A DNA stretch of 64,000 nucleotides from Escherichia coli (GTDB lineage Bacteria > Pseudomonadota > Gammaproteobacteria > Enterobacterales > Enterobacteriaceae): NCBI RefSeq assembly GCF_003018255.1, contig NZ_CP027440.1; one strand, 5' to 3'. Position numbers and translations under genes: made by a program. Under the pieces are notes generated by a model that saw only the letters and a program-made list of their open reading frames with translations, did not search any database and was not told the DNA's origin. Shown piece after piece: positions 1,526 to 35,272 of the stretch. Every line of letters starts with the position of its first letter. Within the stretch, counting starts at the first letter, position 1.

Positions 1526-1527
1526 CG

Positions 1528-2532
1528 ATGCGTAAGTCAGTTATCGCGATTATCATCATCGTGCTGGTAGTGCTTTACATGTCTGTCTTTGTCGTCAAAG
1601 AAGGTGAGCGCGGTATTACGCTGCGTTTTGGTAAGGTACTGCGTGACGATGACAACAAACCTCTGGTTTATGAGCCGGGTTTGCATTTCAAGATACCGTT
1701 CATTGAAACGGTGAAAATGCTCGACGCACGTATTCAGACCATGGACAACCAGGCCGACCGCTTTGTGACCAAAGAGAAGAAAGACCTGATCGTCGACTCT
1801 TACATCAAATGGCGCATCAGCGATTTCAGCCGTTACTACCTGGCAACGGGTGGTGGCGACATTTCGCAAGCGGAAGTGCTGTTGAAACGTAAGTTCTCTG
1901 ACCGTCTGCGTTCTGAAATTGGTCGTCTGGACGTGAAAGACATCGTCACCGATTCCCGTGGTCGTCTGACCCTCGAAGTACGTGACGCGCTGAACTCCGG
2001 TTCTGCGGGTACAGAAGATGAAGTTACTACCCCGGCGGCAGATAACGCCATTGCCGAAGCGGCAGAGCGCGTAACGGCTGAGACGAAGGGCAAAGTTCCG
2101 GTCATCAACCCGAACAGTATGGCGGCGCTGGGTATTGAAGTTGTCGATGTGCGAATTAAGCAGATCAACCTGCCGACCGAAGTGTCTGAAGCGATCTACA
2201 ACCGTATGCGCGCCGAGCGTGAAGCGGTAGCGCGTCGTCACCGTTCACAAGGTCAGGAAGAAGCGGAAAAACTGCGCGCGACTGCCGACTATGAAGTGAC
2301 CAGAACGTTGGCTGAAGCTGAGCGTCAGGGCCGCATCATGCGTGGTGAAGGCGATGCAGAAGCAGCCAAACTGTTTGCTGATGCATTCAGTAAAGATCCG
2401 GACTTCTACGCATTCATCCGTAGCCTGCGTGCTTATGAGAACAGCTTCTCTGGCAATCAGGACGTGATGGTCATGAGCCCGGATAGCGATTTCTTCCGCT
2501 ACATGAAGACGCCGACTTCCGCAACGCGTTAA
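1528..2532 (+). CDS. hflC: HflC, SPFH/band-7 regulator of FtsH protease
   Basis: 334 aa ORF MRKSVIAIIIIVLVVLYMSVFVVKEGERGI; 2-bp gap after hflK, operon arrangement. Confidence 0.95.
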   Translation: MRKSVIAIIIIVLVVLYMSVFVVKEGERGITLRFGKVLRDDDNKPLVYEPGLHFKIPFIETVKMLDARIQTMDNQADRFVTKEKKDLIVDSYIKWRISDFSRYYLATGGGDISQAEVLLKRKFSDRLRSEIGRLDVKDIVTDSRGRLTLEVRDALNSGSAGTEDEVTTPAADNAIAEAAERVTAETKGKVPVINPNSMAALGIEVVDVRIKQINLPTEVSEAIYNRMRAEREAVARRHRSQGQEEAEKLRATADYEVTRTLAEAERQGRIMRGEGDAEAAKLFADAFSKDPDFYAFIRSLRAYENSFSGNQDVMVMSPDSDFFRYMKTPTSATR

Positions 2533-2560
2533 TATAACGACTGCGGTACAGGTCAATAAA

Positions 2561-2598
2561 GCCACCGCATCCTCAGGGATGTCGGTGGTTTTATTTTT
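2561..2598 (+). terminator. Rho-independent terminator after hflC
   Basis: GC stem gccaccgcatcc...ggatgtcggtgg followed by ttttattttt. Confidence 0.6.
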
Positions 2599-2613
2599 CT
2601 ATAAGGATAATGA

Positions 2614-2811
2614 ATGAATTCGACAATCTGGCTGGCGCTTGCCCTGGTTTTGGTACTGGAAGGTTTAGGGCCGATGCTTTACCCGAAGGCATGGAAGAAG
2701 ATGATCTCTGCGATGACCAATTTGCCCGATAATATTTTACGTCGTTTTGGCGGTGGACTTGTGGTTGCGGGCGTTGTGGTCTACTACATGTTGAGGAAAA
2801 CGATTGGCTGA
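2614..2811 (+). CDS. yjeT: DUF2065 small membrane protein YjeT
   Basis: 65 aa hydrophobic ORF MNSTIWLALALVLVLEGLGP between hflC and purA. Confidence 0.8.
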   Translation: MNSTIWLALALVLVLEGLGPMLYPKAWKKMISAMTNLPDNILRRFGGGLVVAGVVVYYMLRKTIG

Positions 2812-2911
2812 ACAAAAAATAGACTGATCGAGGTCATTTTTGAGTGCAAAAAGTGCTGTAACTCTGAAAAAGCGATGGTAGAATCCATTTTTAAGCAAAC
2901 GGTGATTTTGA

Positions 2912-4213
<1,302 letters not shown>

Positions 4214-4417
4214 TTCTGGTACGCCTGGCAGATATTTTGCCTGCCGGGCTAACAGTGTGATACATTGCTGTGTCGGTTAAGCCATTACGCTATCCGACAC
4301 AGTGTTAAATCCTCGCTTTTTTCCTTCCCCGAACTGAAATAAATTAGCGACACAGCTTGTGGCTGGTTTATCATCAATATAAATGTATTTTTCCCCGATT
4401 TCCCTTTTGAGGTTGAT

Positions 4418-4843
4418 GTGCAGTTAACGAGTTTCACTGATTACGGATTACGTGCGCTGATCTACATGGCGTCATTGCCAGAAGGGCGGATGACCAGTAT
4501 TTCTGAAGTGACTGACGTCTACGGCGTCTCCCGTAATCATATGGTCAAAATAATCAATCAACTTAGTCGTGCCGGCTACGTGACTGCTGTTCGTGGAAAA
4601 AATGGCGGCATTCGCTTGGGTAAACCGGCGAGTGCGATACGTATTGGTGATGTGGTGCGCGAGCTGGAGCCCTTATCGCTGGTGAATTGCAGCAGTGAGT
4701 TTTGCCACATTACACCTGCCTGTCGGTTGAAACAGGCACTTTCTAAGGCCGTGCAAAGTTTTCTTACGGAACTGGATAACTACACGCTTGCCGATTTGGT
4801 TGAAGAGAATCAACCGCTTTATAAATTATTGCTGGTGGAGTGA
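4418..4843 (+). CDS. nsrR: NO-sensing Rrf2-family repressor NsrR
   Basis: 141 aa; [18 protein letters not shown] Rrf2 HTH, three Cys near C-terminus; immediately upstream of rnr. Confidence 0.93.
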
Positions 4844-4881
4844 CGAAAATCTTCATCAGAGATGACAACGGAGGAACCGAG

Positions 4882-7323
4882 ATGTCACAAGATCCTTTCC
4901 AGGAACGCGAAGCTGAAAAATACGCGAATCCCATCCCTAGTCGGGAATTTATCCTCGAACATTTAACCAAACGTGAAAAACCGGCCAGCCGTGATGAGCT
5001 GGCGGTAGAACTGCACATTGAAGGCGAAGAGCAGCTTGAAGGCCTGCGTCGCCGCCTGCGCGCGATGGAGCGCGATGGTCAACTGGTCTTCACTCGTCGT
5101 CAGTGCTATGCGCTGCCGGAACGCCTCGACCTGGTGAAAGGTACCGTTATTGGCCACCGTGATGGCTACGGCTTTCTGCGGGTTGAAGGGCGTAAAGATG
5201 ATTTGTATCTCTCCAGCGAGCAGATGAAAACCTGCATTCATGGCGATCAGGTGCTGGCTCAGCCGCTGGGCGCTGACCGTAAAGGTCGTCGTGAAGCGCG
5301 TATTGTCCGCGTACTGGTGCCAAAAACCAGCCAGATTGTTGGTCGCTACTTCACCGAAGCGGGCGTCGGCTTTGTGGTTCCTGACGACAGTCGTTTGAGC
5401 TTCGATATCTTAATCCCGCCCGATCAGATCATGGGCGCGCGGATGGGCTTTGTGGTGGTGGTTGAACTGACCCAACGCCCGACTCGCCGTACCAAAGCGG
5501 TGGGTAAAATCGTCGAAGTGCTGGGCGACAATATGGGCACCGGCATGGCGGTTGATATCGCTCTGCGTACCCATGAAATTCCGTATATCTGGCCGCAGGC
5601 TGTTGAGCAACAGGTTGCCGGGCTGAAAGAAGAAGTGCCGGAAGAAGCAAAAGCGGGCCGTGTCGATCTGCGCGATTTACCGCTGGTCACCATTGATGGC
5701 GAAGACGCCCGTGACTTTGACGATGCAGTTTACTGCGAGAAAAAACGCGGCGGCGGCTGGCGTTTGTGGGTCGCAATTGCCGACGTCAGTTACTATGTGC
5801 GTCCGCCAACACCGCTGGACAGAGAAGCGCGTAACCGTGGTACGTCGGTGTACTTCCCTTCGCAGGTTATCCCGATGCTGCCGGAAGTGCTCTCTAACGG
5901 CCTGTGCTCGCTCAACCCGCAGGTAGACCGCCTGTGTATGGTGTGTGAGATGACCATTTCGTCGAAAGGTCGCCTGACGGGCTACAAATTCTATGAAGCG
6001 GTGATGAGCTCTCACGCGCGTCTGACCTACACCAAAGTCTGGCATATACTGCAGGGCGATCAGGATCTGCGCGAGCAGTACGCCCCGCTGGTTAAGCACC
6101 TCGAAGAGCTGCATAACCTCTATAAAGTGCTGGATAAAGCCCGTGAAGAACGCGGCGGGATCTCGTTTGAGAGCGAAGAAGCGAAGTTCATTTTCAACGC
6201 TGAACGCCGTATTGAGCGTATCGAACAGACCCAGCGTAACGACGCACACAAGTTAATTGAAGAGTGCATGATTCTGGCGAATATCTCGGCGGCGCGTTTC
6301 GTTGAGAAGGCCAAAGAACCGGCACTGTTCCGTATTCACGACAAGCCGAGCACTGAAGCAATAACCTCTTTCCGTTCAGTGCTGGCGGAACTGGGGCTGG
6401 AATTGCCTGGCGGTAACAAGCCGGAACCGCGTGACTACGCGGAACTGCTGGAATCGGTTGCTGACCGTCCTGACGCAGAAATGCTGCAAACCATGCTGTT
6501 GCGCTCGATGAAACAAGCGATTTACGATCCGGAAAACCGTGGTCACTTCGGTCTGGCATTGCAGTCCTATGCGCACTTTACTTCGCCGATTCGTCGTTAT
6601 CCTGACCTGACGCTGCACCGCGCCATTAAGTATCTGTTGGCGAAAGAGCAGGGGCATCAGGGGAATACCACTGAAACCGGCGGCTACCATTATTCGATGG
6701 AAGAGATGCTGCAACTGGGTCAGCACTGTTCGATGGCGGAACGTCGTGCCGACGAAGCAACGCGCGATGTGGCTGACTGGCTGAAGTGTGACTTCATGCT
6801 CGACCAGGTAGGTAACGTCTTTAAAGGCGTAATTTCCAGCGTCACTGGTTTTGGCTTCTTTGTTCGCCTGGATGACTTGTTCATTGATGGTCTGGTCCAT
6901 GTCTCTTCGCTGGACAATGACTACTATCGCTTTGACCAGGTGGGGCAACGCCTGATGGGCGAATCCAGCGGCCAGACTTATCGCCTGGGCGATCGCGTGG
7001 AAGTTCGCGTCGAAGCGGTTAATATGGACGAGCGCAAAATCGACTTTAGCCTGATCTCCAGCGAACGCGCACCGCGCAACGTCGGTAAAACGGCGCGCGA
7101 GAAAGCGAAAAAAGGCGATGCAGGCAAAAAAGGCGGCAAGCGGCGTCAGGTCGGCAAAAAGGTCAACTTTGAGCCAGACAGCGCCTTCCGCGGCGAGAAA
7201 AAACCGAAGCCGAAAGCAGCGAAGAAAGACGCGAGAAAAGCGAAAAAGCCATCGGCGAAAACGCAGAAAATAGCCGCAGCGACCAAAGCGAAGCGTGCGG
7301 CGAAGAAAAAAGTGGCAGAGTGA
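4882..7323 (+). CDS. rnr: Ribonuclease R (RNB-family 3'-5' exoribonuclease)
   Basis: ORF track 4840..7323; start moved to ATG at 4882 ([17 protein letters not shown]) giving 813 aa; S1 domain and Lys-rich basic C-terminal tail. Confidence 0.93.
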
Positions 7324-10524: not shown

Positions 10525-11163
10525 ATGGCCAGAAAACGCAAATCCAGAAATAACAAAAATATCGGATATGGGGCAATCAGTCGCATTGGTAGACCGCATA
10601 ATCCTTTTGAGCCGCGCCGCAATCGCTACGCACAAAAATACTTAACGTTGGCGCTAATGGGCGGTGCCGCTTTTTTCGTATTGAAAGGTTGTGGCGATAG
10701 TGGCGATGTCGATAACGACGGCGACGGAACGTTTTACGCGACTGTGCAGGATTGTATTGATGACGGTAATAATGCAGACATTTGCGCGCGTGGCTGGAAC
10801 AACGCCAAAGCGGCGTTTTATGCCGATGTTCCGAAGAATATGACTCAGCAGAATTGTCAGTCTAAGTACGAAAATTGCTACTACGACAATGTTGAACAGA
10901 GTTGGATCCCGGTCGTTTCTGGATTTTTGTTAAGCCGGGTTATTCGTAAAGATCGCGATGAGCCGTTCGTCTATAACAGCGGCGGATCCTCATTTGCTTC
11001 GCGCCCCGTCTGGCGCAACACTTCTGGTGATTACTCCTGGCGCTCCGGTTCTGGCAAAAAAGAGTCTTACTCTTCGGGCGGCTTTACCACCAAAAAAGCG
11101 TCAACCGTTTCTCGCGGCGGCTATGGTCGTTCTTCCAGCGCCCGTGGGCATTGGGGAGGCTAA
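10525..11163 (+). CDS. yjfM: DUF1190 protein YjfM
   Basis: 212 aa ORF with N-terminal basic/TM segment; conserved position. Confidence 0.85.
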   Translation: MARKRKSRNNKNIGYGAISRIGRPHNPFEPRRNRYAQKYLTLALMGGAAFFVLKGCGDSGDVDNDGDGTFYATVQDCIDDGNNADICARGWNNAKAAFYADVPKNMTQQNCQSKYENCYYDNVEQSWIPVVSGFLLSRVIRKDRDEPFVYNSGGSSFASRPVWRNTSGDYSWRSGSGKKESYSSGGFTTKKASTVSRGGYGRSSSARGHWGG

Positions 11164-11165
11164 TC

Positions 11166-12329
11166 ATGCTGAGACACAACGTTCCTGTGCGGCGGGATCT
11201 GGACCAGATCGCCGCTGACAACGGTTTCGACTTTCATATCATCGACAATGAAATCTATTGGGACGAGAGTCGAGCTTACCGTTTTACTCTGCGCCAGATT
11301 GAAGAGCAGATCGAAAAACCGACTGCGGAACTGCATCAGATGTGCCTTGAGGTGGTGGATCGCGCGGTTAAAGACGAAGAGATCCTGACGCAACTGGCGA
11401 TCCCGCCGTTGTACTGGGATGTGATCGCCGAAAGCTGGCGCGCACGCGATCCTTCGTTGTATGGCCGTATGGATTTTGCCTGGTGTGGTAATGCACCGGT
11501 TAAGTTGCTGGAGTACAACGCCGATACGCCAACTTCATTGTACGAGTCGGCTTATTTCCAGTGGTTGTGGCTGGAAGATGCCCGGCGCAGCGGCGTTATT
11601 CCGCGCGATGCCGATCAGTACAATGCCATTCAGGAGCGCCTGATTTCACGCTTTAGCGAGCTTTACAGTCGGGAACCGTTTTATTTTTGCTGCTGTCAGG
11701 ACACCGACGAAGACAGGAGTACCGTGCTGTACTTGCAGGACTGCGCCGAGCAGGCAGGGCAGGAGTCGCGGTTTATCTACATTGAAGATCTCGGTTTGGG
11801 CGTCGGCGGTGTGCTGACCGATCTTGATGATAATGTCATCCAGCGTGCATTTAAGCTGTATCCGCTGGAGTGGATGATGCGTGACGATAACGGTCCGCTG
11901 CTGCGCAAGCGTCGCGAGCAATGGGTGGAGCCGTTATGGAAAAGTATCTTGAGTAATAAAGGGCTAATGCCGCTGCTTTGGCGCTTCTTCCCTGGTCATC
12001 CTAACCTTCTTGCATCCTGGTTCGATGGTGAAAAACCGCAGATTGCCGCTGGCGAAAGCTATGTGCGTAAACCGATTTACTCGCGCGAAGGCGGAAACGT
12101 CACCATTTTCGACGGTCAGAATAACGTTGTTGACCACGCTGATGGTGATTACGCCGATGAACCGATGATCTACCAGGCGTTTCAACCTCTGCCGCGATTT
12201 GGCGATAGCTACACACTCATCGGTAGCTGGATTGTCGATGATGAAGCGTGCGGAATGGGGATCCGTGAAGATAACACGTTGATCACCAAAGACACCTCAC
12301 GTTTCGTTCCGCATTACATTGCTGGATAA
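11166..12329 (+). CDS. yjfC: Glutathionylspermidine synthase-like ATP-grasp protein YjfC
   Basis: ORF track 11151..12329; start at ATG 11166 (MLRHNVPVRRDLDQIAADNGF) gives 387 aa. Confidence 0.85.
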   Translation: MLRHNVPVRRDLDQIAADNGFDFHIIDNEIYWDESRAYRFTLRQIEEQIEKPTAELHQMCLEVVDRAVKDEEILTQLAIPPLYWDVIAESWRARDPSLYGRMDFAWCGNAPVKLLEYNADTPTSLYESAYFQWLWLEDARRSGVIPRDADQYNAIQERLISRFSELYSREPFYFCCCQDTDEDRSTVLYLQDCAEQAGQESRFIYIEDLGLGVGGVLTDLDDNVIQRAFKLYPLEWMMRDDNGPLLRKRREQWVEPLWKSILSNKGLMPLLWRFFPGHPNLLASWFDGEKPQIAAGESYVRKPIYSREGGNVTIFDGQNNVVDHADGDYADEPMIYQAFQPLPRFGDSYTLIGSWIVDDEACGMGIREDNTLITKDTSRFVPHYIAG

Positions 12330-22919: not shown

Positions 22920-23228
22920 AGATACCTCCTCGACGGCTGACTTTGTGTGCTCTCCTCTTGTGGTGATCTTCTGATTTAATTTTAATCAATGATAAAGAAG
23001 TGGATGGTGACCATTTCTGATGCAGTTGTTCAAAAAAACACCATGATGAAGTGTGATGAACTTCAAATCAGCGTGTTAGTACGATTTGGTGAAGGATGAG
23101 ATTTATTTGTCGGCTGGCCTTGAGTTTAGCGGGGTATGTCAGTACTATAACGCGTCATTTTTCAGCCGACCTTTAACACGTTCCTTGCCTCCCCGGGATT
23201 CGGCTGACCCAGACAGGAGGCTGAATAA

Positions 23229-25087: not shown

Positions 25088-25579
25088 ATGGGTAAAAAAA
25101 CAGCACCGTTACTCCCTTATACGAATCAGATGCTTAGTGAATTTGGTGAGCGGCTGAAACTTGCTCGTTTACGACGCAGGCTTACCGCAAAGCAAGTTGC
25201 TGAACGTGCTGGGATGTCGCCAATAACATTGCGCTCTCTGGAGTCAGGAAGTGCAGGGGTCACGATAGGGGCATATTTGTCTGTGATGCAGGTTTTGGGC
25301 CTGGAAACGGATTTAAATAAGCTTGCAGCTGAAGACGACTTAGGGCGTCAGCTCCAGGATTCCCGTTTGATTAAAAAAAGAGGGCTTTCTCGTGCATCAA
25401 GTAAGAATGAAGAAGGTTCTCAGACAGCCTCATTGCAGATGAGGCACGAGAAAGAAGGTCATCTCACCACGGATTTAACAGCACTGGCAGAAGGCTCGAC
25501 GCCATCTATTACAGGAGAAACATCAACCTCTCTTGCAGCACTATTAAAACCGATAAAAAAACCGTTAAAAGGAAATTAA
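25088..25579 (+). CDS. XRE-family HTH protein, HipB-like putative antitoxin with long C-terminal extension
   Basis: 163 aa; HTH_XRE signature around [32 protein letters not shown]; Ser/Thr/Glu-rich low-complexity C-terminal ~75 aa; stop 25577-25579 is 2 bp before the kinase ATG. Confidence 0.75.
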
Positions 25580-25581
25580 TT

Positions 25582-26850
25582 ATGGCATTAATCGGAGTGT
25601 ATGCGGATTGGGAAGGCCTGGATGGTCCGGAGCGGATTGGTTATTTACACAGTCGCCGCACTCGGACGCGTGAGATATTTGAGTTTGAGTACGATAAAAA
25701 GGCGCTTGCAGATCCTTCACTTAATTTCATTCAGTTAGATCCTGAAATAATGTTGTATGAGGGAGCACACTACCCAATTCCTCCAAAGGATAAATTTGGT
25801 GCATTTAGTGATTCCTGCCCGGATCGTTGGGGGCGTATGCTAATGAAGCGTCGTTTTGAGAGGGATATTCGAGACGGGTTATGTGATAAAGACTCCCACC
25901 TTTATGAGTCTGATTATCTACTAGGTGTTCATGATCTTTATCGGGTTGGGGCCCTTCGATACAAACGTGAAGACGCTGGAGAGTTTCTTGATAATCGCAT
26001 TGATGTTGCAGCCCCACCATTTACCGAAATAGCGAGTCTGGAAAGGGCTAGCCGGGCAATTGAAGAAGATCCTGATAATAAAGAGCTAATGGGGCAAAAA
26101 TGGTTAAGAATGCTAATCGCTCCGGGGGGATCATTAGGGGGGGCACGTCCGAAAGCCAGTGTTGTTGATGAAGCTGGGCATCTCTACATCGCTAAATTTC
26201 CCAGTGTAAAAGATGAGTATGATGTTGGTGGATGGGAAATGGCCGTTAATGCACTTGCTGTTGGCTGTGGACTGAATGTTGCACCTGCTCAGGCGCATAA
26301 ATTTGCCAGCAATTACCATTGTTTTATGGTTCGTCGTTTTGACCGCACTAATGCGGGAAGGCGTCTGCATTTTGCTTCGGCTATGACACTAACCAGGCAT
26401 CAGGATGGTGAAGATGCCTCTACAGGTGTGAGTTATCTGGAATTAGCAGATGTTCTTATCAGGCATGGCGCGCAGACTAATACTGATCTTAAGGAACTCT
26501 GGTCCAGGATTGTTTTTAATATTCTTGTTTCTAATACCGATGATCATTTACGCAATCATGGATTTATCTTGATACCAGGAAAAGGTTGGCGGCTTTCTGA
26601 GGCATATGATTTGAATCCTGTGGTCAGGTCTGATGGTTTAAAACTCAATATTACGGAAAATGACAATGCACTTGATTTGGAATTAGCTAGAGAAGTTGCA
26701 GAGTATTTTCGACTTAGTTTGACGGAAGCTGATGACATTATTGCTAATTTTAGAGGGATTGTCAGTCAGTGGCGAATCATTGCCGAGCGTCTGAGATTAC
26801 CTGGTCGTGAGCAAGAGTTAATGGCAGAGGCATTCAGAGCGTCAATTTAG
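25582..26850 (+). CDS. HipA-family serine/threonine kinase (putative type II toxin)
   Basis: 422 aa; Gly-rich loop GGSLGGARPKAS, catalytic-loop motif NTDDHLRNHG and HipA_C-like C-terminus (DLNPVV...); aaggaa RBS upstream of ATG. Confidence 0.8.
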   Translation: MALIGVYADWEGLDGPERIGYLHSRRTRTREIFEFEYDKKALADPSLNFIQLDPEIMLYEGAHYPIPPKDKFGAFSDSCPDRWGRMLMKRRFERDIRDGLCDKDSHLYESDYLLGVHDLYRVGALRYKREDAGEFLDNRIDVAAPPFTEIASLERASRAIEEDPDNKELMGQKWLRMLIAPGGSLGGARPKASVVDEAGHLYIAKFPSVKDEYDVGGWEMAVNALAVGCGLNVAPAQAHKFASNYHCFMVRRFDRTNAGRRLHFASAMTLTRHQDGEDASTGVSYLELADVLIRHGAQTNTDLKELWSRIVFNILVSNTDDHLRNHGFILIPGKGWRLSEAYDLNPVVRSDGLKLNITENDNALDLELAREVAEYFRLSLTEADDIIANFRGIVSQWRIIAERLRLPGREQELMAEAFRASI

Positions 26851-26992: not shown

Positions 26993-28270
26993 TTAGCTTG
27001 TCGCTAACTGTACTTGTGGTTCTTCGTCTTTAACTTTGATAAGCATCCACAGCGCAATGGCGCCAATAATGTCAAAGAAAGCCAGGGCAATAAAGAACGG
27101 CGCGAAGCCAATAATGTGAACGAATGCCCCGATAAACAGGTTGAAAATCAACTGACCGCTCCATGCACAGGCTCCTGCCATACCCACAGCGGTAGCTACT
27201 TCGTCTTTTTTGAATAGGTCACCGCCCAGAGTTGCTGCAACAGTAGAAAGACATTGATGCGAGAATGCGCCAATGCTAATCAGTAATACGGCGATGTAGG
27301 GATTTTCGACAATACTCACCAGACCAATCGTCATCATAATGACGGCTGCAATAGTGAAGGTAATTCTTCGTGAGTTAATTAAACTCACGCCGCGATCGTG
27401 GAAGAACTTCGCGACAAAACCACTGGCTAAACAGCCGAGATCGCCCAGCAGGAAAGGTAGCCAGACGAACATGGCAATTTCTTTCAGGCTAAAATGCAGC
27501 GTTTCGACGAAGAAAATCGGTACCCAGAAGTTAATGGTTCCCCATGCCGGGTCAGCGAGAAAACGCGCGATGCCAATCCCCCAGAAATTACGTTGGCTGA
27601 GGATATGCTTGATTGACGTTTTTTCTTTCTTATCTGTTTTAAGATGCTGTTCTTGCCCAGACTCAATATAGTGGCGCTCTTCATCAGAAAGGCGTTTAGC
27701 ATCTTTTGGATCTTTATAACAAAAGAACCAAAATAAAGCCGCGAGTAAAGCAAGGCTACCTGAGACAATAAACGCAAATTGCCAGCTATGAAACATAATG
27801 CACCAGGCAATCAACGGTGGAGCAAGCATCGCGCCGAGTGAGGTGCCCATATTGAAAACACCTGTCGCCACGCCACGCTCTTTTGCCGGGAACCATGTTG
27901 ATGCGGTTTTTACACCCGCAGGAATTGCCGATGCTTCGCTGAAACCCATCAGGGCGCGCATAAATGCCAGACCTGACCATGTTCCTGTCAAGGCATGCCC
28001 CATTGTCGCCAGGCCCCAGATTGCGGCACATATCGCAAAACTTAACTTCAGACCCACGGTATCAATAAAGAAGCCCATTATCGGTTGCCCCAATGTATAG
28101 GCCAACTGGAATGCACTGACAATCCATGAATATTGTTCTTTGGTTATTCCGGTTGTCTCCATAATCGTTGGAGCCGCAATACCTAACGCCGTTCTGTCCA
28201 GATAATTGATTACAGTGATAAAGCATACGAGGGCAATCATATGCCATCGATAATTCTTTATTTTATTCAT
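26993..28270 (-). CDS. MFS transporter, anion:cation symporter family (ExuT/hexuronate-transporter-like)
   Basis: 425 aa, 12-TM-like hydrophobicity; MNKIKNYRWHMIALVCF...WFPAKERG...KEIAMFVWLP resembles ExuT/DgoT-type sugar-acid transporters as recalled from memory. Confidence 0.8.
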   Translation of the reverse strand: MNKIKNYRWHMIALVCFITVINYLDRTALGIAAPTIMETTGITKEQYSWIVSAFQLAYTLGQPIMGFFIDTVGLKLSFAICAAIWGLATMGHALTGTWSGLAFMRALMGFSEASAIPAGVKTASTWFPAKERGVATGVFNMGTSLGAMLAPPLIAWCIMFHSWQFAFIVSGSLALLAALFWFFCYKDPKDAKRLSDEERHYIESGQEQHLKTDKKEKTSIKHILSQRNFWGIGIARFLADPAWGTINFWVPIFFVETLHFSLKEIAMFVWLPFLLGDLGCLASGFVAKFFHDRGVSLINSRRITFTIAAVIMMTIGLVSIVENPYIAVLLISIGAFSHQCLSTVAATLGGDLFKKDEVATAVGMAGACAWSGQLIFNLFIGAFVHIIGFAPFFIALAFFDIIGAIALWMLIKVKDEEPQVQLATS

Positions 28271-28362
28271 TTTTAAACCTTTTAATTATATTAATAAACC
28301 CTGGTTGTTGGTATTTCCATGTAATAGGCAATAAAAATCAGGTACAGAGGAAATATTGAAAA

Positions 28363-30435
28363 TTATTGTGTGTAAATGTCTCCCTTTAAAAAATCTGGCC
28401 AGTTTTTTTCAAAGTAAATACCGTTAATACACGGTTGCATACGTAAAGACTTTACTTCGGTAATAAAAGAACCTTGCGAATATTGAATTGTTAATTTGTG
28501 ATTTTTGTCTTCAGCGAGTTCAGAGCGAAAACGCCATTCTTCTTTTGCGCCGCGACGAGTTTGTGGTAGGCATTTGCCTTGTGGATCAATAACCATACGC
28601 GCCCCACGGCTACCACCACCAGCATCAATATAATGCGTTAATTGTGTTAATACCGCGGCAGAAGTCAGCGCCATATGCCGCCACATAAACAGCTCGGCAA
28701 CTTCACCCACATGTTTGATTGCCAATCCATGCCGTTGGACAAATTCGTTCAATAGCAGGGCATCACGAGTGGCACGTCGGACTTTATCGGCATGGCAAAT
28801 AAATCCCGCATAGTCAGACATTCGTGCCTGAATTTTTTCTCTCACAACCGACAACGGCATCCCGGTCCCGTTATCGTGCGCCTGAGTAATGATCTCTCTT
28901 ATAGAAGCCAGTGCCGGAGCTACCAGCTGTGCTATATCTCCATCAATATTACGTTTTTGCGTGCAACCAATAAAACGTGCCAGACGAACAGCAAAAACCT
29001 GCCCGGCATTCAATGCCGCACCACCAGGGCGAGTGACGCCGTGTGTGCCAGCAACTTCCCCCACGGCGAAACAGCCGGGCAGGGAGGTTTGTCCCCAGAT
29101 ATCCACTTCAATGCCGCCATTCATATGCTGATTATTCATGGCAAACTGCAAAGGCTGTGTGGTGAGATCGTAACCGTGCATCTTATACAGCGAGATAGAC
29201 AGCGGATTCATTCGTTGCAGCCGTTCGATGGGCGATGGTGCCAGAGCGTCGTTATTTTCCAGATACGCGCGAACGTCGTCGTCCAGTCGATCTAATGAGA
29301 AGGGCAGGTCACCCGGCACCGCTTCAGGATTGCGATTGAAATCCATAAATACCTGACGCCCTGATTGCTGCTCTTGCGCTACAGCCATATCTAACAAGCT
29401 GGAGCCAAACTCCATTACCCGAGTGGCGTGGAACGGCCACTGATAGCCTTTACGAAAAATGTTTGAAGCCAGCTCCTGGGTGGTGCGATAGTAATCCGCG
29501 AGGAAGTTATACTCGTTGCCCCCGGCATCCACGGAATAGATATGTGGGATCACCTGCACATAGGTGCCGGACAAATTCCACGGAAACGTGCTGCGCGGTG
29601 TGCCTATACCAAACTGGCTTTCAGTCAAATTGGTTAGCGTCAGACCTTCTTCCAGCGCCAGCCCCAGCGAGCCGAAACATTTGTGTGGGTACACACTGTC
29701 GCGATAAAGCTCGCCAGGCCCTCCTGTTGCCAGTACCACATTGGGCGCAATCACAATTGCCAGCCCCCATGGGTTATGGACGCGATGACCGGTCGCGAGG
29801 ATAGCCCCCGCCACGCGGTCTTCGCCGTTTTCGTCACGCTGATGCAGCAGTTTAATCACTGTTGCACTGGTCAACATTGGGATAGCAAGACGCTGTACTT
29901 CTTCCAGCAGCACTTTCACCATTAACCTTGAGGTACGTGGCCCACACGAGGTTGCACGCCCGGCTTCGTCATGGTCGGTTTGATAACGAAGAATCGCACC
30001 ATAGCGATCTTCCGGTAATTCCAGACCAAGATATTGCAACCCGCCAAGAGTGTGCAGAGAACCTACCGCTTCGACATAAGCAGTGTCGTGATCCATCGCC
30101 CCACCACTCGCCAGTGCCTCTGCCAGTTTGGTGAAGTTGTCGCCGTTGCCCGCGGTAGCGGCGGTAAACAGCGTCTGTTTATCGGAACCGGAGCAGGCCG
30201 ATGTTCCCATGTATAACCCGGCGGTGGCGATTAACACATTTTGCTGGCGGCGTTTAAGTTCCACAGCTGCACGCAGCCCGGCTGCACCACTGCCGACTAC
30301 CAGGGCATCTGTTTGCCAAAGTGGGTAATCAACACCGTCTACCGTGACAACCCATGCGGGTTCTGCCTGTGCAAAACCCTTTGGGAAAGTAACGTGCGTC
30401 AGCGCATCAAGGATGGTGTCATCAAGCTGACTCAT
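28363..30435 (-). CDS. FAD-dependent oxidoreductase (succinate dehydrogenase/fumarate reductase flavoprotein-like superfamily)
   Basis: 690 aa; N-terminal Rossmann dinucleotide motif VVGSGAAGLRAAVEL; start ATG overlaps the stop of the upstream CoA-transferase gene (ATGA). Confidence 0.7.
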   Translation of the reverse strand: MSQLDDTILDALTHVTFPKGFAQAEPAWVVTVDGVDYPLWQTDALVVGSGAAGLRAAVELKRRQQNVLIATAGLYMGTSACSGSDKQTLFTAATAGNGDNFTKLAEALASGGAMDHDTAYVEAVGSLHTLGGLQYLGLELPEDRYGAILRYQTDHDEAGRATSCGPRTSRLMVKVLLEEVQRLAIPMLTSATVIKLLHQRDENGEDRVAGAILATGHRVHNPWGLAIVIAPNVVLATGGPGELYRDSVYPHKCFGSLGLALEEGLTLTNLTESQFGIGTPRSTFPWNLSGTYVQVIPHIYSVDAGGNEYNFLADYYRTTQELASNIFRKGYQWPFHATRVMEFGSSLLDMAVAQEQQSGRQVFMDFNRNPEAVPGDLPFSLDRLDDDVRAYLENNDALAPSPIERLQRMNPLSISLYKMHGYDLTTQPLQFAMNNQHMNGGIEVDIWGQTSLPGCFAVGEVAGTHGVTRPGGAALNAGQVFAVRLARFIGCTQKRNIDGDIAQLVAPALASIREIITQAHDNGTGMPLSVVREKIQARMSDYAGFICHADKVRRATRDALLLNEFVQRHGLAIKHVGEVAELFMWRHMALTSAAVLTQLTHYIDAGGGSRGARMVIDPQGKCLPQTRRGAKEEWRFRSELAEDKNHKLTIQYSQGSFITEVKSLRMQPCINGIYFEKNWPDFLKGDIYTQ

Positions 30436-31973
30436 GCATCCTCCATCGGCGTAAACAGGCTACTTTCCATCAGGCGTGGGTGCTTGATAATTGGACGGAA
30501 AGCCATATACGGCAGAATGTCGCGCTCAATCTCCACACCCGGCGCGATTTCAATTAATTCAACGCCTTCTGCCGTTAACTGGAATACTGCGCGTTCAGTG
30601 ATATACAGCACTTCCTGACCACTTTGCTGTGCGTAGGCGGCGCTAAAAGTGATTTTTTCCACTTGGGTAACCAGTTTAGGGATTTGACCTGACTGGGCGA
30701 TATGCAGGCCATCAGGCGTTACATCAATCTTGCTGCCTTTGGCGTCAAACGTACCGCAGAACACCACTTTACGGGCGTTTTGCGCAATTTCGAGGAAGCC
30801 GCCGGGGCCAATGAGATTGCCATTGAGATGGGATACGTTGACGTTACCGTACCGATCCATCTCTCCCATGCCGAGGAAGGTGATATCGATACCGCCGCCA
30901 CTGTAGAATTCGAATTGATCGAGTGATGGAATAATGGCGTCGGCGTTACGGGCGCAGCCGAACAGAGCATCATCCAGCATCATGCCGTTATGTACGCCTT
31001 GCTCGACGCTCATCCATAAACTTTGATAAGGCACGCCTTCGCGCAGCGCAACCCCAGGAATACCGCCCGGAATACCAAAGCCAAAGTTGGTTGAAGCGCC
31101 TGCCACCAGTTCCCGTGCTGCCCGACGGGCAATCAGGCGACGCACCGGATGACTAACCAGTTCAATAGCGTCGTTAGAACTTAGACGGCGATGTTGACCG
31201 CTGATCGTCAGGTCGTAACCGCCAAGATAGGTTTGCGGTTGTTCGCGGTGTTCAACGATACCATCGACCAGAATCCCCGGTAGCTTGACCTTGCGAGGTT
31301 CAATGGCGCCAGCTTCCAGTACATCGCGCACCTGTACAAACACTTTGCCGCCACTGTTGTGTGCTGCCAGCGCCATCGAATAGCTATCCATATCAATCGC
31401 TTCTTCTTCGAGGCTAACGTTGCCACGCGGATCGGCATAGGTGCCGCGCAAAATCGCGTAGTCCACTTTGAAAGGGCGATAGCGGAGTTTGGTTTCACCG
31501 TCGATTTCAATCAGTTCTACCAGGTCGTCGGTCGTGCATTCATTCGACTTACCGCCACCATTGCGTGGATCAACAAACGATCCCAGCCCAACGTGGGTAA
31601 AAAGCCCCGGACGTCCGGCACCGATCTCCCGCAGCAGTGCCTGAATTACGCCACCAGGGAAACAGTAGGCTTCAATAGCATTGCTTTTCACCAGTTCCTG
31701 CATCTTGGGCGACCAGGTAAAATGTCCGGCAATAATGCGTTTGAGCATTTCGGCGTGAGCAAAACGGTTAGTGCCTTTGCTGTCGCGATCGCCAATACCC
31801 AGCGAGTGGATTAATGTCAGATCGCGCGGGTGTCCGGTTTGCAGGAAACGCGCTTCAATGGCGGCCATAATATGGTCAGCTTCCACCATACCGCCGCCGT
31901 TACCGCTAATGGCAATGGTTGCGCCGTCCTGAATTTGCGCCGCCAGTGTCTCGGCGGTTGATAACTTACGCAT
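30432..31973 (-). CDS. Family I CoA-transferase, fused alpha/beta subunits (YdiF-like acyl-CoA:acetate CoA-transferase)
   Basis: 513 aa; GSFVDPRNGGGK and YITERAVFQLTAEGVELIEIAPGVEIERDIL closely parallel YdiF motifs as recalled from memory. Confidence 0.75.
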   Translation of the reverse strand: MRKLSTAETLAAQIQDGATIAISGNGGGMVEADHIMAAIEARFLQTGHPRDLTLIHSLGIGDRDSKGTNRFAHAEMLKRIIAGHFTWSPKMQELVKSNAIEAYCFPGGVIQALLREIGAGRPGLFTHVGLGSFVDPRNGGGKSNECTTDDLVELIEIDGETKLRYRPFKVDYAILRGTYADPRGNVSLEEEAIDMDSYSMALAAHNSGGKVFVQVRDVLEAGAIEPRKVKLPGILVDGIVEHREQPQTYLGGYDLTISGQHRRLSSNDAIELVSHPVRRLIARRAARELVAGASTNFGFGIPGGIPGVALREGVPYQSLWMSVEQGVHNGMMLDDALFGCARNADAIIPSLDQFEFYSGGGIDITFLGMGEMDRYGNVNVSHLNGNLIGPGGFLEIAQNARKVVFCGTFDAKGSKIDVTPDGLHIAQSGQIPKLVTQVEKITFSAAYAQQSGQEVLYITERAVFQLTAEGVELIEIAPGVEIERDILPYMAFRPIIKHPRLMESSLFTPMEDA

Positions 31974-31982
31974 ACAATTTCC

Positions 31983-32759
31983 TTATTGATTGTGGAAGCT
32001 CACGCCGGCTTTTTCGGCAAATGCGTGCGTCGCCTGCTGGCAATCCTGAGTGGCGGACATTAATCCAGCCAGTAACTGGTGGGAGTAATCGGCGTGTTTA
32101 TTTTCCAGCGCCAGAATCAGTTGCTTAATATGTGCCAGTGCCACCGGACCACATTTTTCCAGCTGCGCTAACTGGTTCGCCATCCAGCTTTCCACCTGTT
32201 CTTTTTCTACCACTTCATCAATTAAATTCGCCACCTGGGCTTCCTGCGCCGTCAGGCGTTTACCCAGCATCAGCATCTGGCGACCGACCACCGGGCCAAC
32301 CTGATTAAGCACGCGTTCAATGCCCATCCAGCCAGGCACCATGCCGAGCATCACTTCCGGGTTAGAGAATTTCGCGCCGGGGCGAGCGATACGAATATCG
32401 CAGCACAAGGCAAGTTCAATACCGCCACCGATGGTATGACCGTTGAGATTCGCAACGGTTAATTGGGGTAAGTTGCGCAGGCGATTAAAAACCTCGTTAC
32501 CGCGTTTAATCCATTTTCTGCCCATATCTAATGGCGAATAGGCCGACCACGATTTAATATCGCCGCCCGCACAAAAGAATTTATCGCCGGTTGCCGTTAA
32601 TTCGACTAATCGTAATGTGGTGTCGTTTTCAATTTCATTTAAATAATGGTCGAGAGATTCGATCATTTCTTCATTAATAGCATGACATTTATCTTCACGG
32701 TTCAATGTCAGGCGGCAAGAAGCCGCCGCTCTGCTGAACAGAACGGGTTGGTCACTCAT
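31983..32759 (-). CDS. Enoyl-CoA hydratase/isomerase (crotonase-fold) protein
   Basis: 258 aa; crotonase-like oxyanion-hole region (FFCAGGDIK ... GHTIGGGIELALCCDIRIA). Confidence 0.75.
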   Translation of the reverse strand: MSDQPVLFSRAAASCRLTLNREDKCHAINEEMIESLDHYLNEIENDTTLRLVELTATGDKFFCAGGDIKSWSAYSPLDMGRKWIKRGNEVFNRLRNLPQLTVANLNGHTIGGGIELALCCDIRIARPGAKFSNPEVMLGMVPGWMGIERVLNQVGPVVGRQMLMLGKRLTAQEAQVANLIDEVVEKEQVESWMANQLAQLEKCGPVALAHIKQLILALENKHADYSHQLLAGLMSATQDCQQATHAFAEKAGVSFHNQ

Positions 32760-32768
32760 GATTATTCC

Positions 32769-33611
32769 TTAGCAATAATGTGCGATGCGATCGACGCTAA
32801 TATCCAGCGTGCTGTTAATATCTTTCTGCCACCAGTACGGTGAGAATATTTCCAGTTCAATAGCGCCATTAAATCCGGCGTTTTCAACCAGCCGACGAAT
32901 TGACGGAATATTGATGACACCATCTCCCGGCATTCCACGGTCATTGACCAGATCGGTGGTCGGCACTAACCAGTCGGAAACATGAAACGCGAGGATGCGT
33001 TTTCCGGCACGCAGGATCTGACTGGCGAGATCCGGGTCCCACCAGACATGGTAGACATCTACCGCCACGCCGAGGCCAAATTCGCCATCGGGATCGAGTT
33101 CATCACACCAGTCCAGCGCCTGACGTAACGTGCACAGACAAGAACGATCGGCAGCAGTCATCGGGTGCAGTGGCTCCAGTGCAATTGGCACGCCGACCTC
33201 TTTCGAATGTGGCAGCAACTGGCGAATCCCTTGTTTCACCTGTTCCCGTGCTTCGTACAGATCTTTTGTTCCCATTGGCAGACCGCCAACCACCTGCATG
33301 TAACAGGCGGCATTTAGCACAGCGGCATCGTCCAGCGCCCGGCGGTTATCATCAATCGCCAGCTTGCGCTCCGCCAGCGTCGGTGCGGTGTAGTAGGTGC
33401 TACGGCACAAACCGGAAACGTTTATGTTACTGGCAGCAAGCTGGCGGGCGATTTGCTGGAGATCTTCACCCTGCAACTCCCTGCGCCAGGGGGCAATGGC
33501 GCCAATACCGCGTGCGGCGCAGGCATCAATAATGGCGGGTAGCGGCGTTTTATAGCCCAGTGTCGCGGTATTGATACTGAATAAATCCGGGCGTTGTAAC
33601 AGATCTCTCAT
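32769..33611 (-). CDS. Xylose-isomerase-like TIM-barrel protein (sugar phosphate isomerase/epimerase or dehydratase family)
   Basis: 280 aa; AP-endonuclease-2/xylose-isomerase-like TIM-barrel pattern, same fold family as UlaE/IolE; function inferred from family only. Confidence 0.6.
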   Translation of the reverse strand: MRDLLQRPDLFSINTATLGYKTPLPAIIDACAARGIGAIAPWRRELQGEDLQQIARQLAASNINVSGLCRSTYYTAPTLAERKLAIDDNRRALDDAAVLNAACYMQVVGGLPMGTKDLYEAREQVKQGIRQLLPHSKEVGVPIALEPLHPMTAADRSCLCTLRQALDWCDELDPDGEFGLGVAVDVYHVWWDPDLASQILRAGKRILAFHVSDWLVPTTDLVNDRGMPGDGVINIPSIRRLVENAGFNGAIELEIFSPYWWQKDINSTLDISVDRIAHYC

Positions 33612-33620
33612 GATTCAGCC

Positions 33621-34412
33621 TCAGAAGCGCGGCATACTTAAGCCGCCGTCGATGGCGACCGCCTGACCACAGGTGTAAATCAGTTTACCTTCCGCCATCG
33701 CGCGGACAGTGGAAGCAATATCAGCCGGATAACCCCAACGTCCCCACGGCACCAGACCTTTGGCAATCAGTTCGTCGTAATAGGCCGTTGCCGGAATAGT
33801 CATATCGGTTTTGATGAGACCAGGACGCACTTCATATACGCCAATTTGTTCATTACAAAGGCGAGCAGCAAATAGACGAGCAGCGGCAGAGACGGCAGTT
33901 TTGGCAATGGTATATTCGCCGCGATTCATCGCCAGCATGATGGCGTTGATGGAACTGACGAAAATAATCGAGCGGTGCGGCAGTTCTGCTTCCGGTTTCG
34001 GCTGTGCCAGTAAGCGCTTACTGAATGCCTGAGCGAGGAAGAACGGTGCGCGGGTGTTAATGGCAATATTTTGGTCGAAGCTGTCTGGTTCGAGGTCGAG
34101 AAGATCACCGCGTTTTTTCACTGAAATGCCTGCGTTGTTGAGCAGGCAGTCCAGACGTCCCCACTGGTTTTGCGCTGCGTCGAGCATCTCTTCATGCAGG
34201 GAGAGATCGCCCACATCAGCAGGGAAGCAAATCACTTCCACGCCTTCCGCCAGACATTCTTGTTGTGTGGCATGTAATTTTTCTACGCTATCCGCATCCG
34301 GACGATCATTAATCAGCAGATTAAATCCGCCACGCGCAAGCTCCAGCGCACAGCCCTTTCCAATACCACGAGCGGCTCCGGTAATCACGGCAACAGGAAG
34401 AGTGGATTTCAT
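33621..34412 (-). CDS. Short-chain dehydrogenase/reductase (SDR)
   Basis: 263 aa; cofactor motif TGAARGIGKG and catalytic YxxxK (YTIAKTAV); first gene of the minus-strand operon. Confidence 0.8.
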   Translation of the reverse strand: MKSTLPVAVITGAARGIGKGCALELARGGFNLLINDRPDADSVEKLHATQQECLAEGVEVICFPADVGDLSLHEEMLDAAQNQWGRLDCLLNNAGISVKKRGDLLDLEPDSFDQNIAINTRAPFFLAQAFSKRLLAQPKPEAELPHRSIIFVSSINAIMLAMNRGEYTIAKTAVSAAARLFAARLCNEQIGVYEVRPGLIKTDMTIPATAYYDELIAKGLVPWGRWGYPADIASTVRAMAEGKLIYTCGQAVAIDGGLSMPRF

Positions 34413-34480
34413 ACAATAGCTCTCTTTTTTTGAATTTTGTTTCCTTAGTGATGATTAGCTTGCGACTGGAGGGTAAAAAG

Positions 34481-34502
34481 ATCAACCATCTAGTTGGTTG
34501 AT
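34481..34502. promoter_or_regulatory. Near-perfect 22-bp palindrome in the divergent SDR/TetR intergenic region (candidate TetR operator)
   Basis: ATCAACCATCTAGTTGGTTGAT, 20 of 22 positions self-complementary, 8-bp perfect arms. Confidence 0.4.
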
Positions 34503-34624
34503 ATGCGATGGCGATCACAGGACATTTGATAACCTGATGAAAGTACAAGTTTTTGCCCTTTTTTCTGAAGCTGAAATCAAATCAGGTTATGATAGTCACC
34601 ACGAAGAGGTCGTGGGGAAGCGTT

Positions 34625-35272
34625 ATGTATCTTGATACCAGCAACGTACAGAGCCTGAAAGAAAAGCTGCTGTTATGCGCGGTTAATGAATTTGCCGAAT
34701 ATGGTTACGAAGGGGCCAGAGTCGATAATATCGTCAAGGCCGCGGGGTGCAGTAAACAGACGGTTTATCACCACTTTGGTAATAAAGAAAATTTATTTAT
34801 CGAAGTACTGGAATATACCTGGAACGATATTCGACAAAAAGAAAAGGCCCTTGATTTCTCAGATCTTCCGCCACAGAAAGCCATTGAGAAAATAATCGAT
34901 TTTACATGGGATTATTATATTTCTAATCCCTGGTTTTTAAAAATTGTGCATAGTGAAAATCAAAGTAAGGGTGTGCATTATGCAAAGTCACAGCGTCTTT
35001 TAGAAATTAACCATGCGCACTTGCAGTTAATGGAATCCTTATTGGATGAAGGGAAGAAAAACAATATTTTTAAGCCAGATATCGACCCATTGCAGGTGAA
35101 TATTAATATTGCTGCGCTTGGGGGATATTATTTGATCAACCAGCATACGCTTGGTCTGGTTTATCACATCAGTATGGTTTCACCCCAGGCACTGGAAGCC
35201 AGACGTAAGGTCATCAAAGAGACAATCCTTAGCTGGCTTTTGGTTGACCCTTCATCTACCGCGCGCGAATAA
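34625..35272 (+). CDS. TetR/AcrR-family transcriptional regulator
   Basis: ORF track 34553..35272 begins at a TTG; ATG at 34625 with ggggaag RBS is more plausible (215 aa); TetR_N HTH ([27 protein letters not shown]). Confidence 0.75.

Follow-up and report, generated by a model that had tools for sequence, protein, structure and literature searches.

In the TetR/tetO system of Tn10, the gene for a repressor with a TetR_N domain is divergent from the regulated genes, and palindromic operators lie in the shared intergenic region over promoter elements. Here, we analyzed a 212-bp divergent region at positions 34413 to 34624 of a 64-kb stretch of an Escherichia coli chromosome (the window, which refers to the whole stretch). 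The region is located between a short-chain dehydrogenase/reductase (SDR) gene on the minus strand, which begins a putative catabolic operon, and a tetR-family gene on the plus strand, which corresponded to an intact ytfA and is called tetR below. In our preferred interpretation, to which we assigned a probability of about 75%, YtfA bound at a 22-bp near-palindrome (inverted repeat A, IR-A) would repress a CRP-activated operon promoter, tetR would have a separate promoter, and a second inverted repeat (IR-B) would have no function. The control region contained the following elements (A3 is an alignment of the intergenic regions of 15 enterobacterial loci).

34457 to 34462, minus strand: predicted weak operon -10 element CAAGCT (CATCTT, CATTTT, or TAAGTT in orthologs), in a conserved GCAtnnT block of A3; implied start at about 34450
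34480 to 34485, minus strand: predicted operon -35 element TTGATC, within the operator's left arm; ranked in the top three in 16/16 loci and first in 8
34481 to 34502, no strand: IR-A, 22-bp near-palindrome made up of the left half-site and an outer GGTTGAT (34496 to 34502) offset by 4 bp from the inner one; from the sequence and a pattern search
34482 to 34497, no strand: predicted core YtfA operator TCAACC-ATCT-AGTTGG in the N4 register, center 34489.5; from a matrix match and A3 conservation
34504 to 34519, no strand: CRP box TGCGA-TGGCGA-TCACA, center 34511.5, 22 bp from the operator center; 9/10 core positions
34529 to 34538, no strand: IR-B left arm, ATAACCTGAT, with its first 5 bases in a conserved ATAAC block; from the sequence and alignments
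34565 to 34570, plus strand: weak -35-like hexamer CTGAAG for tetR, with a 17-bp spacer before TATGAT; low confidence, from matrix scoring
34581 to 34590, no strand: IR-B right arm, ATCAGGTTAT, with its last 3 bases forming the first 3 of the tetR -10 element; from the sequence and alignments
34588 to 34593, plus strand: predicted tetR -10 element TATGAT, conserved in A3; implied start at about 34600
34614 to 34619, plus strand: Shine-Dalgarno-like GGGGAA, 5 nt before the ATG; purine block conserved in alignments

The locus resembled TetR/tetO in its gene arrangement and in the position of its palindrome over predicted promoter elements, and induction would presumably occur by ligand release. 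In contrast to TetR/tetO, in which two 19-bp operators lie on both promoters and autoregulation is tight, we found one composite box on the predicted operon promoter only. In addition, the box sequence was unrelated to that of tetO, the ligand domain was TetR_C_29, and the promoter would also depend on CRP. A closer match in operator geometry was RutR, an E. coli TetR-family regulator of a divergent catabolic operon, the box of which is reportedly TTGACCAnnTGGTCAA. Both boxes were 16-bp dyads with ACC-A-nn-T-GGT geometry and half-site centers 10 bp apart; the box described here was TCAACC-AnnT-GGTTGA. However, YtfA was only 26% identical to RutR, and thus the likeness was an analogy in architecture and not membership. 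The recognition helices also differed (SKTNLLYYF versus SKQTVYHHF), YtfA scored far below the NCBIfam RutR cutoffs, and we rejected a kinship between the two proteins.

Two further comparisons concerned activation and induction. As in lac, the predicted operon promoter would have a class I CRP site centered roughly 61.5 bp before the putative start, a weak -10 element, and a pathway-specific repressor that would have to be released; by the same logic, expression would require that glucose be absent and substrate be present. Unlike in lac, where the repressor site is downstream at +11, the repressor site here would be between CRP and the -10 element and over the -35 element, given the predicted start, and the repressor is a TetR-family rather than a LacI-family protein. 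Bacillus FadR, KstR2, and PaaR are acyl-CoA-responsive TetR regulators that control CoA-dependent catabolic operons, and the operon described here likewise appeared to be CoA dependent. Bacillus FadR was the best NCBIfam partial match to YtfA (E = 1.9e-12, residues 14 to 155), and some pipelines name the Salmonella YtfA orthologs 'KstR2'. However, YtfA scored far below the family cutoffs (47 versus 200 bits) and the operators differed, and so we take this likeness as a possible lead on the inducer and not as family membership. Overall, the arrangement was an ordinary TetR-type switch combined with catabolite control, newly defined for an uncharacterized regulator and operon, and mechanistically it contained nothing unexpected for a TetR-family system. 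It provided a concrete, testable regulatory model for an uncharacterized catabolic operon, one that assigns positions to the operator, the CRP site, both promoters, and the correct start codon.

The predicted YtfA operator

The initial annotation placed a 22-bp near-palindrome at 34481 to 34502, and a check against the sequence agreed exactly. IR-A, which reads ATCAACCA-TCTAGT-TGGTTGAT, had two perfect 8-bp arms and 10/11 pairs when it was scored as a 22-bp palindrome. When the 212-bp region was shuffled with its dinucleotides preserved, only 0.18% of the shuffles contained a palindrome of this length with at least 10/11 pairs, and IR-A was therefore clearly nonrandom. The real 64-kb window contained two such palindromes, and the pattern CAACC-N8-GGTTG had a single exact occurrence in it, at IR-A.

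IR-A was also examined as a putative minus-strand intrinsic terminator or RNA hairpin, in which the stem is followed by CTTTTT and antisense read-through from ytfB into the operon would be stopped. A terminator scan flagged IR-A on that strand, and the hairpin had a folding energy of -9.0 kcal/mol (z = -4.3). However, only 3 of the 8 stem pairs were G-C, and IR-A was located about 750 nt past the ytfB stop codon, within the promoter region. Moreover, the half-site sequence was conserved beyond mere pairing, and the palindrome was kept with the TetR gene in alphaproteobacteria, where the T-run and ytfB are absent. IR-A had neither the G+C-rich stem nor the location downstream of a gene that, with a U-run, characterize intrinsic terminators; it was rejected as one, and we consider this function extremely improbable.

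For comparison, 14 further loci were collected, which came from E. whittamii, E. albertii, two further E. coli alleles, K. spallanzanii, Citrobacter, Salmonella, Lelliottia, Leminorella, and Entomohabitans and included five metagenomic or divergent loci with 57 to 67% TetR identity; A3 comprised 15 loci, and the addition of strain H10407 gave 16. The further loci shared the order TetR-SDR-TIM barrel-enoyl-CoA hydratase-CoA-transferase-FAD flavoprotein, and several were in other chromosomal contexts. IR-A was retained in 16/16 of these enterobacterial orthologous loci (TetR identity, 57 to 100%). It was aligned in 14/15 A3 loci, and the fifteenth, Entomohabitans, had IR-A further upstream. The most conserved intergenic block in A3 was IR-A itself, GATCAACC(A/G)nnn(A/G)GTTGGTT. 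Relative to H10407, the window's intergenic region was 84.9% identical, the SDR gene 95.2%, and tetR 96.6%, and within E. coli this region was thus unusually variable compared with the genes beside it. Nevertheless, positions 34477 to 34533 differed within E. coli at just three sites, namely, 34492 in the operator and 34510 and 34512 in the CRP box, where both fall in the N6 spacer that CRP does not read. The region from 34413 to 34624 existed as at least four E. coli alleles (comparators L060 at 11003 to 11214, L002, and L005), and a megablast search with the window's intergenic allele found 1,585 genomes, versus 3,140 that carried the locus.

The same box, in the form ATCAAC(C/T)-N4-GGTTGAT, was found upstream of 19/19 alphaproteobacterial homologs with 34 to 42% identity, within about 75 to 145 bp of the aligned start. 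The recognition helix of these homologs was almost the same as that of E. coli YtfA. None of the 19 was beside this operon, and about 13 were divergent from genes for SsuA/NMT1-like periplasmic (ABC-transporter) binding proteins. We built a symmetrized box matrix solely from the 19 alphaproteobacterial sites, which themselves scored 20 to 30 bits. The alphaproteobacterial sites and the matrix matches in the window were as follows.

Loci L007 to L023, L025, and L026, about 5850 to 5930: box of YtfA-like regulators with 34 to 42% identity
34478 to 34501, no strand: top match in the 64-kb window (24-mer), 23.5 bits
34482 to 34505, no strand: second match, which overlapped the first, 19.3 bits
602 to 625, no strand: next best match, AAATTCAGCCATCTGGTTGAGCCG, 15.2 bits; the best outside the control region and below every training site

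In 16/16 enteric loci, IR-A was the top matrix match and scored 22 to 27 bits, and background scores did not exceed 14.5 bits. Among the enteric-type loci, the most divergent (L056) had two full-strength boxes 46 bp apart, at 4239 to 4262 and 4285 to 4308, with scores of 24.3 and 25.8 bits. The extra box was a perfect AACCAACC-ATTC-GGTTGGTT and lay in the stretch that separates the first box from the SDR start.

The TetR gene was the only feature common to the enterobacterial and alphaproteobacterial box-bearing loci, and this provided strong comparative evidence that the box was the YtfA operator. IR-A had dyad symmetry, a location in a promoter region, and co-occurrence with its regulator, as is characteristic of TetR-family operators. 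Taken together, these comparisons suggested that IR-A was very probably the operator of YtfA, an uncharacterized TetR-type repressor. The initial annotation had named IR-A as a candidate TetR operator, and this proposal was supported by its presence in every orthologous locus and by the co-occurrence of the box with distant homologs in unrelated contexts. The assignment of the box to YtfA is a prediction from comparison, and it is conceivable that a different regulator binds the conserved box. A YtfA-like gene with a conserved recognition helix was nevertheless the sole feature that the two groups of loci shared, and we regard a different regulator as very unlikely. Judging from its distribution, the YtfA-subfamily box appeared to be far older than its association with the enterobacterial operon. 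Such a family-wide box would allow regulon prediction for related TetR_C_29 regulators.

In the family consensus, a 16- to 18-bp dyad, AACC and GGTT were separated by four bases, and the enteric site read ATCAACC-ATCT-(A/G)GTT-GGTTGAT. This site could be divided in two ways. In the N4 register, the left half-site was paired with the inner RGTTGG (center 34489.5). In the N8 register, which corresponded to the palindrome described in the initial annotation, the left half-site was paired with the outer GGTTGA (center 34491.5) and the match was perfect in the close group. The outer half-site had decayed to GGTTAA or GGTTTA in distant enteric loci, and some alphaproteobacterial sites also had GGTTGGTTGA. 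The offset half-site may be an extended half-site, a means of binding in two alternative registers, or part of a two-dimer site.

CRP, promoters, and the predicted regulatory circuit

The initial annotation omitted a CRP site that adjoins the operator. The box at 34504 to 34519 matched TGTGA-N6-TCACA at 9/10 positions, and the 64-kb window contained two such sites. A CRP box with 8 to 10 matches was found in 16/16 loci at a fixed distance of 21 to 22 bp from the operator center. For enterotoxigenic E. coli (ETEC) strain H10407, Table 1 of Haycocks et al. 2015 (PMC4287617) includes a high-confidence CRP peak from chromatin immunoprecipitation sequencing (ChIP-seq); the peak is flanked by ETEC_4557, described as ETEC-specific, and by ETEC_4558 (ytfA), and its MEME site is TGTGATCACTATCGCA. 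This 16-mer was the reverse complement of the H10407 orthologous position, NC_017633.1 4941093 to 4941108, where the site was TGCGATAGTGATCACA. The coordinate in PMC4287617 was about 190 lower than that in RefSeq, and the same offset was found at the neighboring yjfY/rpsF site. These published data indicated that CRP occupied the orthologous site in vivo in H10407, which carried an allele other than the window's.

The second CRP-like box of the window, TGTGATGAACTTCAAA at 23052 to 23067, was located between yjfY and rpsF and was identical to the MEME site under another H10407 CRP ChIP-seq peak (PMC4287617). Two other segments of the control region were conserved in most orthologs, namely, a TT(G/A)ATAAC block at 34526 to 34533, about 18 bp to the right of the CRP center, and a T-rich tract at 34550 to 34564 upstream of the tetR promoter. 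A by-eye comparison of the conserved TTGATAAC block with the FNR, IHF, and ArcA consensus sequences found no convincing match.

Promoter candidates were scored with a rough σ70 matrix and by positional conservation. On the minus strand, TTGATC-17-CA(A/T)nnT was the only position-conserved candidate among the 16 loci. With a start at about 34450, the CRP site would be centered near -61.5, a class I position, and the operator core would extend from about -32 to about -47. IR-A overlapped the predicted -35 element TTGATC in this class I model, or the spacer between the -10 and -35 elements in a class II model, and with either predicted promoter the repressor would exclude polymerase from DNA adjacent to its activator. 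On the plus strand, T1, A2, T3, and T6 of the predicted tetR -10 element were invariant in the 15 A3 loci, and the H10407 and E69 alleles had TAAGAT. Distant loci had TGnTATAGT, an extended -10 element, at the tetR promoter, and the element was 28 to 39 nt before the ATG, including in Entomohabitans.

The initial annotation proposed that the TetR protein controls both itself and the operon. The distance from the operator to the SDR start was 72.5 to 87.5 bp across loci, and the distance to the tetR ATG was 120 to 154 bp and reached 350 bp in Entomohabitans. Between the operator and the conserved tetR promoter further downstream lay about 100 bp. In the Entomohabitans teleogrylli locus (L006, about 5680 to 5970), about 215 bp of extra sequence separated the operator-CRP module from the tetR promoter, which had stayed with tetR. 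The fixed distance to the SDR gene, the variable distance to tetR, and the position of the extra L056 box near the SDR gene meant that autoregulation was not supported by position; the operator appeared to track the operon and not tetR. Thus, control of the operon was retained from the initial proposal, given the fixed SDR distance and the overlap with the predicted operon promoter, and self-control was not, given the distance from the tetR promoter and the Entomohabitans gap.

In the mechanism that we propose, a YtfA dimer would bind TCAACC-N4-RGTTGG(TTGAT) at about 34481 to 34502, with the core at 34482 to 34497. Bound YtfA would block RNA polymerase because the box holds the predicted -35 element TTGATC and is located between the operon -10 element and the CRP site, and it would probably also block the contact between CRP and polymerase. 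Cyclic AMP (cAMP)-CRP would activate the operon promoter from a class I position at about -61.5 or a class II position at -41.5, and a pathway metabolite, either the carboxylate that is imported or a CoA thioester derived from it, would induce the operon by releasing YtfA. The tetR gene would be transcribed from its own promoter (-10 element TATGAT, 34588 to 34593) and translated from the ATG at 34625. Because the operator does not overlap this predicted promoter, tetR expression would probably be largely constitutive.

Several points weighed against this model. The binding register and stoichiometry were ambiguous because, in the window, the right half-site of the N4 register was imperfect (AGTTGG) and that of the N8 register was perfect. 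The CRP ChIP-seq data were from H10407, the site of which differs from the window's in the N6 spacer. Every promoter assignment involved weak hexamers (6 to 7 of 12 matches) and the rough matrix, and a stricter σ70 scan of 34300 to 34750 found no promoter; the promoter calls therefore depended on the looser matrix and on positional conservation. A class II arrangement fit the CRP phasing equally well, with a -10 element GATCTT at 34483 to 34478 and a start at about 34471; CRP would then be at -41.5, and the spacer would hold the operator. Finally, a plus-strand candidate restricted to E. coli, TTGATA (34498 to 34503)-17-GACATT (34521 to 34526), would make tetR autoregulated.

This last candidate was the basis for an alternative in which IR-A would regulate both divergent promoters, as in TetR/tetO. 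The outer arms would be back-to-back -35 elements, with TTGATC serving the operon and TTGATA serving a second tetR promoter, and, as CRP would occupy the spacer of this second promoter, it would be repressed by CRP as well as by YtfA. With a score of 9.0 bits, TTGATA-17-GACATT was the best plus-strand candidate in the window, and each of the four examined E. coli alleles had it, as did E. whittamii; Lelliottia had TTGATT-17-TATTAT at 13.2 bits. However, the second promoter was not conserved in E. albertii, Citrobacter, and Salmonella, in which the -10 element had no A2; two of these three also had an altered -35 element (TTGGAC and TTGGTT). Klebsiella kept an A2/T6 hexamer (GATTCT), but its -35 element was TTGGTT and no top-three candidate was found at this position. 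The universally conserved plus-strand element was instead TATGAT, 95 bp further on, and in Entomohabitans the operator was more than 300 bp from tetR. We consider dual regulation unlikely, with a chance that is still appreciable.

With regard to our preferred model, in which YtfA would act at the operon promoter, a broader generalization can be put forward tentatively, as a possibility that falls clearly short of even odds. The YtfA-type TetR_C_29 subfamily may read one box, TCAACC-N4-GGTTGA, from Alphaproteobacteria to Enterobacteriaceae, and in enterics this box would be 22 bp from CRP and carry an extra half-site offset by 4 bp. There, YtfA, possibly bound as two dimers or in either of two registers, would serve as an anti-activator that separates RNA polymerase from CRP, and it would gate a CoA-dependent organic-acid pathway that is present in 58% of complete E. 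coli genomes and lost in K-12.

The tetR start codon and inverted repeat B

Two start codons were considered for tetR, a TTG at 34553 and an ATG at 34625, which is preceded by GGGGAA. The initial annotation favored the ATG, and the PGAP start, the N-terminal sequence, the Shine-Dalgarno-like block, and the position of the -10 element all agreed with this choice. The N-terminus M-Y-(L/F/I), or MY(L/F/I)D, began at the position of 34625 in orthologs down to 57% identity, and the most distant one began with MNDLL. Orthologue alignments upstream of the ATG were divergent, with insertions and deletions that were not multiples of three, and the TTG was upstream of the conserved tetR -10 element. A six-pair hairpin, CCACGA/TCGTGG, was predicted at 34599 to 34615 in the tetR leader, over the Shine-Dalgarno block (-9.2 kcal/mol, z = -1.8). 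We rejected this hairpin as a regulatory candidate because pairing in orthologs was no better than in shuffles and no covariation was observed.

IR-B was reported in the initial annotation as a perfect 10-bp inverted repeat at 34529 to 34538 and 34581 to 34590, with the arms 42 bp apart, and the sequence matched this description exactly. Perfect 10-bp inverted repeats with a gap of 100 or less were found in 1.3% of dinucleotide shuffles of the 212-bp region, and 27 were found in the real 64-kb window (about 0.09 per 212 bp). On sequence statistics alone, IR-B was mildly unusual.

A role for IR-B as a second operator, or as a regulatory hairpin formed by the leader RNA of tetR, would be in keeping with the perfect repeat, with an RNA fold of -15.9 kcal/mol (z = -2.4), and with the presence in its arms of AACC and GGTT, like operator half-sites. 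However, arm complementarity was 10/10 only in the window allele and E. whittamii, and it was broken in the other E. coli alleles (7 to 8/10 in H10407, E69, and SCPM) and in other genera (3 to 8/10). Among the ten closest sequences, 78% of the cells were paired, compared to 76.7% after column shuffling, and 5 to 6 of the ten had breaks at the two central pairs. The box matrix had no match at IR-B, and the 42-bp spacing was incompatible with one dimer. Both arms were upstream of the tetR transcription start predicted from the conserved -10 element, which the right arm overlaps, and an Rfam search found no match at E <= 1 in 34300 to 34750. Neither of the functions suggested in the initial annotation was sustained: the operator, in view of the lack of conservation, the absence of a matrix match, and a gap too wide for one dimer, and the 5' untranslated region hairpin, in view of the absence of covariation and the position of the arms. 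We judge either role to be highly improbable, and IR-B would appear to be a strain-specific coincidence that has no function as an inverted repeat.

The regulator, the operon, and neighboring features

The full locus was found in 3,140 of 5,426 complete E. coli genomes (58%) and was also present in most Escherichia species, Salmonella, Citrobacter, and Klebsiella. The synteny of tetR and the operon was kept in 14 further loci. The genes were as follows.

34625 to 35272, plus strand: tetR-family gene, intact ytfA, 215 amino acids (aa), TetR_N and TetR_C_29; from the PGAP start and a domain search
26993 to 34412, minus strand: operon, whole (predicted regulated unit); from annotation, protein families, and synteny
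33621 to 34412, minus strand: SDR, 3-ketoacyl-ACP-reductase-like; operon gene
32769 to 33611, minus strand: xylose-isomerase-like TIM barrel, sugar-phosphate isomerase/epimerase family; operon gene
31983 to 32759, minus strand: enoyl-CoA hydratase; operon gene
30432 to 31973, minus strand: family-I CoA-transferase (acyl-CoA:acetate/3-ketoacid); operon gene
28363 to 30435, minus strand: FAD flavoprotein (FAD-binding protein); operon gene
26993 to 28270, minus strand: ACS-family MFS transporter, D-galactonate-transporter subfamily; operon gene

PGAP annotated a 215-aa TetR/AcrR regulator at 34625 that is convergent with and overlaps ytfB. The Pfam domains TetR_N (3e-14) and TetR_C_29 (6e-30) placed YtfA in the TetR family, and the nearest solved structure was 3npi, an uncharacterized structural-genomics TetR. 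In K-12, a 402-nt ytfA pseudogene beside ytfB is the sole remnant of the locus. Because K-12 retains this pseudogene beside ytfB, we identified the window's regulator as the intact YtfA, and because K-12 keeps nothing else of the locus, the operon is invisible to K-12-based regulon work. A survey (PMC6790063) listed ytfA among the TetR-family genes that are variable between E. coli strains, with no function given. A CRISPR interference study of the K-12 pseudogene (bioRxiv 10.64898/2025.12.20.695731) was set aside, as it says nothing on the intact regulator.

Every one of the operon proteins had generic database names only. The flavoprotein had no PDB relative below 1e-10, and the TIM-barrel protein matched only 3qc0 and 3ju2, which have generic or uncharacterized names, and 7vpf, which was deposited as 'Xylose isomerase'. 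Within the searchable library of papers, no characterization was found for the set of genes, for ytfA, for TetR_C_29, or for the sequence of the box. The encoded proteins suggested that this was an uncharacterized CoA-dependent organic-acid catabolic operon, and the operator-repressor pair could be used as a reporter for finding the pathway substrate.

The transporter genes varied among strains. At the place of the ACS-family MFS gene, strains 2017.09.02CC and H10407 had three TRAP transporter genes (compared stretches, L001 at 890 to 3734 and L060 at 2079 to 4923), and both transporter types import organic anions. The flavoprotein of the TRAP-carrying strains had a different 3' end, with 94% identity. 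The sole other 22-bp near-palindrome in the window, AAAAAATCTGGCCAGTTTTTTT at 28388 to 28409, was located in the last flavoprotein codons near the junction of the MFS and TRAP variants.

At the other end of the locus, the convergent 3' coding ends of ytfA and ytfB overlapped by 17 nt (35256 to 35272), and thus each transcript must run antisense into the other gene. Between rplI and the transporter gene, the plus strand contained a helix-turn-helix antitoxin-like open reading frame (163 aa) followed by a HipA-family toxin-like open reading frame (422 aa) at 25088 to 26850.

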